Source: Thermoproteota archaeon (lineage in GTDB: Archaea > Asgardarchaeota > Jordiarchaeia > Jordiarchaeales > Freyrarchaeaceae). From it: a stretch of 63,312 nt of DNA. This document shows, piece after piece, positions 10,307 to 12,016 of this stretch. The notes under the pieces are model-generated. The model was not told the origin of the DNA, ran no database searches, and saw only the letters and a list, made by a program, of their open reading frames with translations. The stretch is from contig JAPDJY010000048.1 of the NCBI GenBank assembly GCA_029258835.1, forward strand, positions 1-63,312, written 5' to 3'. How positions within the stretch are numbered: the stretch's first letter is position 1; each line of letters opens with the position of its first letter. The position numbers were made by a program, and so were the translations under genes.

Positions 10307-10643
10307 TTAAACCCTGACGAGCTGTATCTCTATCGTGGAGACGTTACGCTGATCCTCCCCGCTTCCAATGGTTTCAGTGCCTATCTTTATCTCTCCAAGT
10401 TTAACGGAGTCCGGCATGAATCTCTGCCTCACAATCTCCACCACGTCAACAGCCTTAGAAATCGCTCTTCCTCGGGCTACAACCCTAACTTCATCTGCTC
10501 CTTGACTTAATTGCATGACACACGCAAGGACATAGCTCACTCGACGTAAGGTAGAGCTTATCATGAAGCCTACCCTACTTTGTCGGTTTTTTCCCTACGA
10601 AAACCATATTCTCAGTTGTGGAGCCCTTTTTCGAACCGGACAT
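10307..10643 (-). CDS. albA: DNA/RNA-binding protein Alba, two exons (10643-10580 and 10539-10307), 98 aa after splicing
   Basis: Exon 1 [21 protein letters not shown] plus exon 2 (M)[10 protein letters not shown]...[14 protein letters not shown]...NVSTIEIQL matches the Alba consensus GKKPxMxYVLA. Confidence 0.9.
10540..10579 (-). other. Bulge-helix-bulge intron (40 nt) in alba mRNA
   Basis: CGAC-AA^A-GTAGGGTAG-GCTT-catgat-AAGC-T-CTACCTTAC-GTCG-AG^T; excision gives CCG ACA ATG AGC TAT. Confidence 0.85.
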
Positions 10644-10919: not shown

Positions 10920-11459
10920 GTGAGGAAAAGAGTTGAACACTGCCGGTTGAGGTTAGGCGAAATGGGTAAGCGCATACCTCCTAGTTTACCTGCCGTTTTA
11001 ATTATTCTTCTAGTTGAAGCAGCTTATGCAGTTTTAATCGCTATGTCTTCCCTTATCTTATACGCGTCGACTGAAGGGTTGAAGACTGCCATAATAGCGG
11101 TGCTCCCATTATCTAAATCTATAAGCGATCTCGGTCTGGCAACGTTCATGTACACCTCAGCATGCAGTTTTTCACTGATGTTAACCCTAAGAATCGCTTT
11201 TCTCACTTCCCTTGCAGTTTTCAACGTTCTATTTATTCGGTGGATCCTCATGTTCTGGGAGCACGCCTATCAAGGAGTTTTAACTCGCTCTCTTACGGTA
11301 ATTCTTTTCGCCCTCCTCATCATGCCCAACACCGTCGCTGCATTTCTCATTCTTACAAGCTTACTTCTCACTATAATTTTCTTTCAGAGTGCAGAGTTAA
11401 GGAAACTCTTTGTGGAAGCGAAAGGAGAAGAGGAGAGAAGGAGAGGTGGTGAAGAATGA
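10920..11459 (+). CDS. Hypothetical membrane protein (~4 TM)
   Basis: Hydrophobic stretches; overlaps the next start codon. Confidence 0.65.
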   Translation: MRKRVEHCRLRLGEMGKRIPPSLPAVLIILLVEAAYAVLIAMSSLILYASTEGLKTAIIAVLPLSKSISDLGLATFMYTSACSFSLMLTLRIAFLTSLAVFNVLFIRWILMFWEHAYQGVLTRSLTVILFALLIMPNTVAAFLILTSLLLTIIFFQSAELRKLFVEAKGEEERRRGGEE

Positions 11460-12016
11460 ATTACAAGTATGGAGGATTAGAAATTATAACTCTAACAGGA
11501 GACATAACCAAGCTTGAAGTGGATGCCATAGTTAACGCGGCCAATAGTCACCTCTGGATGGGAGGCGGCGTGGCAGGGGCGCTTAAAAGGGTAGGCGGAG
11601 CCGAGATCGAAGAGGACGCTAGAAAGAAGGCTCCGAAAAACGAGAAGGGTGAACCGTTCGTCCCCGTTGGTGAAGCAATCGCCTCAACTGCAGGGCGGCT
11701 TAAGGCGAAGTATGTAATTCATGCGCCGACCATGGAGAAGCCCGCCATGAGGACTACCCCCGAAAAGGTCGAGAAAGCGATGAGAGCCGCCCTTAAATGC
11801 GCAGAAAGCCTAAACGTTGGAAGCCTAGCAGTACCCGCATTAGGGACAGGAGTTGGCGGCGTCCCCAAGGATGAGGCAGCTAAGAGAATGGTTAAAGCAC
11901 TGATTGAGCATGTACACTCCGGAACAAAACTGAAAAAAGTGTTCCTGTGCGACATAAGCGAGTCTCAGGTAAAGGCGTTTGACGAAGCCTTAACGTCTCT
12001 TAACGTTCAGCGTTAA
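11456..12016 (+). CDS. Macro domain (ADP-ribose-binding / deacylase) protein
   Basis: GDITK..DAIVNAAN..MGGGVAGAL, VIHAPT, PALGTGVGG. Confidence 0.93.
   Translation: MNYKYGGLEIITLTGDITKLEVDAIVNAANSHLWMGGGVAGALKRVGGAEIEEDARKKAPKNEKGEPFVPVGEAIASTAGRLKAKYVIHAPTMEKPAMRTTPEKVEKAMRAALKCAESLNVGSLAVPALGTGVGGVPKDEAAKRMVKALIEHVHSGTKLKKVFLCDISESQVKAFDEALTSLNVQR

Follow-up and report, generated by a model that had tools for sequence, protein, structure and literature searches.

A probable bulge-helix-bulge intron in the protein-coding alba gene of a Jordarchaeia archaeon

Among the searchable papers on archaea, introns in coding sequences have been described only for cbf5 of some Crenarchaeota, and one more mRNA processed by EndA is known from Haloferax (PMC10485636, PMC2738675). 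The cbf5 pre-mRNA carries a bulge-helix-bulge (BHB) intron in Aeropyrum, Sulfolobales and Desulfurococcales (Watanabe 2002; Yokobori 2009, PMC2738675). The original prediction for the locus described here had named crenarchaeal cbf5 as the mRNA precedent, and the literature bore this out, cbf5 being the sole intron-split coding sequence that was found. In Haloferax volcanii, the HVO_1309 mRNA contains a BHB motif and is processed by EndA, the tRNA splicing endonuclease (PMC7714728; reviewed in PMC10485636). The heterotetrameric form of EndA reportedly cleaves relaxed motifs beyond tRNA, that of cbf5 among them (PMC2738675, PMC5829648), and both cbf5 and non-canonical tRNA introns have been described as having a relaxed motif, HBh' (PMC2738675). 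In Freyarchaeia and Atabeyarchaeia, 92-95% of the tRNA genes contain introns (PMC11291895). That study and a second report (bioRxiv 10.64898/2026.10.13.758758) deal with tRNA genes only, with no mention found of coding-sequence introns or of alba, and neither an alba intron nor BHB introns in Asgard coding sequences turned up in the literature search.

The window, that is, the whole stretch of DNA that was analysed (63,312 nt), belongs to a genome assembly of 2.72 Mb in 91 contigs with 95% completeness. The closest public relatives of its alba gene were found in metagenome-assembled genomes named Candidatus Jordarchaeum, Jordarchaeia and Freyarchaeota, and the stretch occurs in hydrothermal-vent and marine-sediment metagenomes. 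The gene lies in the window in three pieces.

10580..10643, minus strand: alba exon 1, with the start codon ATG at 10643-10641, 21 codons, and A 10580 as the first base of a split Met codon
10540..10579, minus strand: probable BHB intron of 40 nt, with boundaries fixed unambiguously by comparison with the intronless orthologs L006 and L007
10307..10539, minus strand: alba exon 2, which completes the split Met codon with TG and continues with 76 codons (SYVLAC...QLVRV) to the stop codon at 10309-10307

Read without splicing, the exon 1 frame runs from ATG 10643 through GKKPT-K to TAG and forms an ORF of 22 aa (10575-10643, minus strand). The insert both contributes this in-frame TAG and, as 40 is not divisible by 3, shifts the frame. 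An SD-like GGAGGG is located immediately 5' of the ATG and is conserved among orthologs. The in-frame part of exon 2 (10537-10307) matched positions 13-65 of the 66 positions in the Pfam Alba profile (PF01918; 64 bits, E 9.5e-18), the first twelve positions being absent from the match. The missing beta-1 segment is supplied by exon 1, whose peptide matches the N-terminus of the intronless orthologs P0003 and P0004, and the two exons together give a full-length Alba that is colinear with the annotated intronless Alba P0003. Removal of the 40 nt creates CCG ACA ATG AGC TAT (GKKPTMSYVLAC), with CCGACAAUGAGCUAUG as the predicted joined exon 1-exon 2 junction, and the spliced product would be a protein of 98 aa, ...VGKKPT-M-SYVLAC..., colinear with both P0003 and P0004. 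The original prediction had described this three-piece gene, with the insert at 10579-10540, and a Met codon that exists only after ligation; against the sequence and the ORF list the first was correct to the base, and the second was confirmed by the A and TG of the codon, which are split by the 40 nt.

A mobile repeat was rejected as the nature of the intron, since the 40-nt sequence is single in the genome, where no second copy was found. Searches of the window with Rfam and ARAGORN found nothing. The genes neighbouring alba encode a Zn-ribbon protein, a CxxCxxCC protein, a membrane protein and a macro-domain protein, and no homing endonuclease is among them. The macro-domain protein gene (11456-12016, plus strand) adjoins the gene for the membrane protein, which is 179 aa long, and is divergent from alba.

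The break in the frame would by itself, and with nothing more in its favour, be compatible with an assembly or sequencing artefact, or with translational bypassing or frameshifting over the insert. On the DNA side, contigs from three runs of independent studies cross the insert unchanged, and a contig of a JGI metagenome (L086) is 100% identical, insert included. The insert is therefore not an assembly artefact, a possibility that had been put forward beforehand as one that would undo the prediction. Translational bypassing, for its part, cannot build a Met codon from an A and a UG that are split by 40 nt, and explanations of this kind are left with practically no probability.

The predicted fold of the transcript around the insert has the following elements.

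10582..10585, minus strand: 5' strand of the central 4-bp helix, CGAC, exonic and within the Pro-Thr codons, invariant in 7 of 7 intron-bearing variants
10579..10581, minus strand: bulge 1, AAA, with the predicted 5' splice site between 10580 and 10579
10546..10578, minus strand: intron hairpin h', made of GUAGGGUAG/CUACCUUAC (9 bp, one of them G-U), a single bulged U, GCUU/AAGC (4 bp) and the loop CAUGAU
10542..10545, minus strand: 3' strand of the central 4-bp helix, GUCG, intronic, invariant
10539..10541, minus strand: bulge 2, AGU, with the predicted 3' splice site between 10540 and 10539
10523..10599, minus strand: outer exon-exon helix, CGUAGGGA (10599-10592) with UCCUUGCG (10530-10523), in the minimum free energy (MFE) fold

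The MFE fold of positions 10520-10605 (86 nt) had an energy of -31.4 kcal/mol (z = -4.3), and one of 200 shuffled sequences was as stable. This fold holds the CGAC/GUCG, GUAGGGUAG/CUACCUUAC and GCUU/AAGC helices and the outer CGUAGGGA/UCCUUGCG helix, so that every helix named in the original prediction (central, hairpin and outer) was recovered. Its 3-nt bulges AAA and AGU fared less uniformly. They are present in the strict BHB form, in which two opposite 3-nt bulges are separated by the 4-bp helix and which is 3 kcal/mol less stable than the MFE fold in the window genome and 0-4.7 kcal/mol less stable across all 7 intron variants, but the unconstrained MFE fold contains two further pairs (AC with GU) that shrink bulge 2 to 1 nt.

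The intron-side helix h' is well developed, with 9+4 bp in the window genome and hairpins of 5-9 bp in the orthologs. At the exon side of the bulges, where a strict hBHBh' motif has helix h, there is one C-G pair only, next to bulge 2. Because the exon-side helix is essentially missing, the alba intron motif is a relaxed HBh' motif and not a canonical one. The outer 8-bp exon helix, predicted as a possibility, does form in the MFE fold of the window, where an internal loop lies between it and the BHB; it is specific to the window genome and forms in none of the six orthologous variants. Since it is absent from all orthologs, it is probably not a required part of the intron motif. On each strand, the alba insert shows the order helix, 4 nt, 3-nt bulge and helix, which is the geometry of the archaeal BHB motif in pre-tRNA as reportedly described by Marck and Grosjean.

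In order to compare the alba site among relatives, 40 relatives were searched with exon 2 and the DNA upstream of each match was read, with the following outcome.

Window genome (G000): insert of 40 nt at the alba site
G001, of the sister genus: insert of 27 nt at the same alba site
G004, of the sister genus: insert of 28 nt at the same alba site
Six Freyarchaeia-type genomes of a second family: insert of 30 nt, in three sequence variants, at the same alba site
Metagenome contig L090: insert of 31 nt at the same alba site
G002 and G003, of the genus of G001 and G004: no insert, the DNA reading CCGACAATGAG and CCAACAATGAG, respectively
More distant Asgard relatives: no insert at the alba site

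All of the alba inserts have CGAC-AAN on the 5' side and GUCG-ANU on the 3' side, and the hairpins between these conserved ends differ by group (GUAGGGUAG..., GUGAGGCGG... and GUAGA...CAC/GUG). The predicted junction CCGACAA/TGAG is the sequence found in the intronless G002 and G003, and G003 has CAAC where the intron-bearing variants have CGAC of the central helix. In the window, the boundaries of the insert cannot slide, because the insert neither ends with the base that precedes it nor starts with the base that follows it. With the boundaries fixed in this way and matched by the intronless orthologs, the EndA rule is obeyed to the nucleotide: the cut after the second base of each bulge, which had been predicted to remove 40 nt and restore Alba, falls exactly on the junction of the intronless genes.

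Covariation was counted on the nine proximal pairs that can be aligned, the distal hairpins not being homologous between variants. Of the cells in these nine pairs 96.8% were paired, versus 13-54% when the partners were slid, and two pairs at the base of the hairpin are compensatory, with A-U changed to G-C on both sides. The alignment of alba from relatives that the original prediction had called for, to look for presence or absence of the insert and for covariation, thus gave same-site inserts, intronless orthologs and these two compensatory pairs. In a tree of exon 2, the intron-bearing genes and the two intronless ones formed one clade apart from the intronless outgroups (99/99 support). 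The simplest history is a single gain of the intron before the split of the two families followed by one or two precise losses, between which the tree does not distinguish, as it leaves the order within the Jordarchaeia family undecided. The alba intron is old, occupying one site in two families of the order and being precisely lost in some species.

Further inserts were seen near this site. The Freyarchaeia-like alba on L090 (Ga0164311_10013973, about 1400-1500) has two BHB-like inserts 12 nt apart, the second lying 12 nt upstream of the common one, with a length of about 29 nt and a central helix CAGG/CCUG. An alba gene of an Aenigmatarchaeota MAG (L055, JBAZQV010000030.1, just upstream of 3001) has a BHB insert of 28 nt with UAGG/CCUA; this insert is located four codons upstream of the Asgard site, which makes it a separate insertion. 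Of the 70 alba matches in a sample of 81 Aenigmatarchaeota genomes, 4 start at position 9-10 of the profile. Introns seem to have entered the 5' end of alba repeatedly. A protein of 118 aa from an ENA contig (P0007) comes from an alba gene with the Freyarchaeia-type 30-nt intron in which the stop has been lost (TAG to CAG), and gene callers read the intron through as a 10-residue insertion (MQIHFCVLRRL).

If the insert were not spliced, the products of the locus would be a peptide of 22 aa and possibly an Alba that lacks its N-terminus and starts at ATG 10564 inside the insert. An ORF of 85 aa does begin at this ATG, and gene callers have annotated the orthologs as exon-2-only proteins of 78 aa. 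The ATG is, however, missing from every orthologous insert. When the window gene was compared with its nearest orthologs in the spliced frame, dN/dS was 0.02-0.05, and the synonymous sites of alba are near saturation (dS 0.65-2.1). Exon 1 keeps its start codon and the sequence of the beta-1 strand, NMVF(V/I)G(K/R)KPT, which together with the SD-like motif have been retained under strong purifying selection, and the insert retains its BHB core despite the saturated synonymous sites. An unspliced gene is, on these grounds, very unlikely.

The same measurements bear on the view that the split alba is a pseudogene, made dispensable by an intact paralog. A second, uninterrupted alba of 97 aa is indeed encoded on contig C2 of the genome, and the original prediction had envisaged that both exons might have decayed while an intact alba persisted elsewhere. 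The two paralogs are just 58-60% identical, and each of the four sister-genus genomes has retained both of them; the contig C2 gene is not a replacement copy of the split one. Neither exon has another lesion, a dN/dS this low argues against a pseudogene, and the interruption has been kept in two families with its structure conserved. Both exons are thus intact and constrained, contrary to the case that had been envisaged, and the pseudogene explanation is highly improbable.

Public sequencing runs provided two observations that bear on a joined or cleaved transcript. In the metatranscriptome run X15, the sole alba contig (162 nt, depth 3, 100% identical) covers 10378-10539 and stops, with no loose end, precisely where exon 2 begins (10539). 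Exon 1 and the intron are without coverage in this run, a gap in contigs that carries no weight by itself, and no read or contig of the organism that joins the two exons was seen. The end at 10539 could reflect an assembly graph that branches where spliced and unspliced molecules diverge, a cleaved intermediate, or chance, and the chance of a contig ending at a base named beforehand is roughly 1 in 100 or less. This single low-depth contig end is a hint of splicing. The second observation concerns P0006, an Alba of 108 aa in the protein database that derives from the Logan contig L164 (1057 nt) of the public run SRR28530378. Compared with an intron-bearing Freyarchaeota genome contig, L164 is 99.6% identical and has in addition one clean gap of 30 nt, which is the predicted intron of that ortholog. 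The joined form in L164 could result from RNA splicing or could be DNA from an intronless strain.

The genome was also examined for the enzymes that such splicing would use. Two genes with an EndA domain (tRNA_int_endo) are present, in the regions C1:12233-12481 and C6:39796-40056. The first encodes a protein of 190 aa that keeps the catalytic His, and among solved structures it is closest to the catalytic alpha subunits of heterotetrameric EndA from Aeropyrum pernix and Pyrobaculum aerophilum (E 4e-46). The second paralog has Ala in place of the catalytic His, as would be expected of a structural beta subunit. The host EndA is probably an (alpha-beta)2 enzyme of the crenarchaeal type. RtcB is likewise encoded in the genome (607 bits). 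By gene content, the host encodes an EndA suited to relaxed motifs, whose subunits presumably assemble in this manner, and the RtcB ligase, and we infer that the two cut and join the alba pre-mRNA in the host.

The best explanation of the locus is that 10579-10540 is an archaeal BHB intron in the alba pre-mRNA, removed by EndA and ligation, which we regard as very probable. The alba transcript would fold so that exonic CGAC pairs with intronic GUCG, and this fold would expose the bulges AAA and AGU on opposite strands beside the stable hairpin of the intron. EndA would then cleave after the second base in each bulge, and RtcB would ligate the exons and so form the codon A/UG, giving the Alba protein of 98 aa. 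Without splicing, translation would end after 22 residues.

In order to find other introns of this kind, the genome was scanned for a 4-bp helix with two 3-nt bulges and an inner stem of 4 bp or more; in addition, excision had to join two frames that are closed in the unspliced sequence. The scan was noisy, with 16,208 raw candidates, and signal and noise are not told apart by the first letters of the bulges. It recovered alba and at least four further split protein genes.

EF-1alpha, contig C27, 28874-28832 (L156), minus strand: intron of 43 nt that splits the P-loop GHVDHG/KST, with helix CGGC/GCCG and bulges AAU and AAG
cbf5, contig C27, 11929-11955 (L157), plus strand: intron of 27 nt at GHAGTL/DPKVTG, beside the catalytic Asp motif, the TruB_N match resuming at position 17
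gatE (GatB_N, GAD), contig C8, 63575-63604 (L159), plus strand: in-frame intron of 30 nt with a TGA stop, helix GACG/CGUC and bulges AAA and AAA
PflX-like radical-SAM gene, contig C1, 136664-136638 (L158), minus strand: intron of 27 nt just before the Fe-S motif CTFSCVFCQN
Further clean-looking candidates of the scan: C19, minus strand, 4679 (L55); C6, minus strand, 26554 (L36); C6, plus strand, 47339 (L29); C1, plus strand, 127674 (L31)

For EF-1alpha, cbf5 and gatE, the Pfam coordinates are contiguous across the break, with positions 1-15 of GTP_EFTU in exon 1 of EF-1alpha and positions 17-183 in exon 2. In the PflX-like gene, exon 2 matched the Radical_SAM profile from position 4 and exon 1 had no Pfam match. 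In the five introns that were checked, all ten bulges begin with A. The further candidates, which come from the scan only, comprise a Tes-like radical-SAM gene, dnaG (VIGAIFGQ/LEGLLG) and two others. The genome contains at least five BHB introns in protein genes, alba included, and probably many more.

Several other candidates were set aside. C27+17813 was rejected as two adjacent genes, for S3Ae and a Zn finger, and C81+811, C61-3399 and C39-23069 look, by eye, like adjacent or unrelated genes. For a PIN gene on contig C2, no exon 1 could be confirmed. Over the whole genome, ARAGORN called 25 tRNA genes, 20 of them with an intron and several of implausible size, which suggests that many tRNA genes with multiple introns were missed by the program.

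Splicing of alba could also be regulated, either through a competing helix between exonic CGUAGGG and intronic CCUUACG or through binding of Alba to its own pre-mRNA, with intron retention setting the dose of Alba. Alba proteins bind RNA, the 7-bp complementarity between exon and intron is present in the window genome, and the X15 contig, with its end at the 3' splice site, would be consistent with the coexistence of spliced and unspliced molecules. When the competing helix was enforced, however, the energy was -17.6 kcal/mol versus -33.8 kcal/mol for the MFE, a cost of about 16 kcal/mol, and the six orthologous variants have neither the competitor complementarity nor the outer exon helix. Close relatives live without the alba intron, and with the same kind of intron in at least four unrelated genes of the genome, a logic specific to this gene is not needed. 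Competition and autoregulation, both of them proposed in the original prediction, therefore found no support, and regulated splicing is considered unlikely.

For the BHB intron in alba, the wider setting may be a genome-wide layer of mRNA splicing by EndA and RtcB in Jordarchaeia/Freyarchaeia, of which alba is one visible piece; we lean toward this view. If it is true, genes for chromatin and core translation (alba, EF-1alpha, cbf5, gatE, dnaG and others) depend for their expression on the tRNA-splicing machinery, the introns are old, common to families and lost precisely, as if via spliced RNA copies, and a close prokaryotic relative of eukaryotes routinely splices its protein genes. Since gene callers truncate split genes, as with the orthologs filed as proteins of 78 aa, Asgard proteomes and pseudogene counts are biased. 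The alba intron adds a new host gene for BHB introns in the lineage closest to eukaryotes, and it is conserved across families, cleanly lost in some species and found alongside similar introns in essential genes such as that for EF-1alpha. It offers a concrete system for how introns spliced by protein enzymes enter mRNAs and disappear from them.

In conclusion, among the known systems HVO_1309 of Haloferax differs from alba in gene and phylum and in its alpha2-type enzyme, and no presence/absence series of orthologs has been described for it. The case of crenarchaeal cbf5 resembles alba in its short intron within a coding sequence and its relaxed BHB motif, in the link to a hetero-oligomeric EndA of relaxed specificity, and in gain and precise loss among relatives. 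The two differ in that the host gene here is alba and the phylum is Asgard (Jordarchaeia), and that, unlike the single crenarchaeal case, alba is one of many, with cbf5, EF-1alpha, gatE and others also split. For cbf5, RT-PCR and in vitro cleavage have demonstrated splicing, whereas for alba it is predicted here from sequence. The tRNA introns of Freyarchaeia and Atabeyarchaeia (PMC11291895; bioRxiv 10.64898/2026.10.13.758758), many of which lie at non-canonical positions, share with the alba intron the lineage, the size range and the BHB logic.
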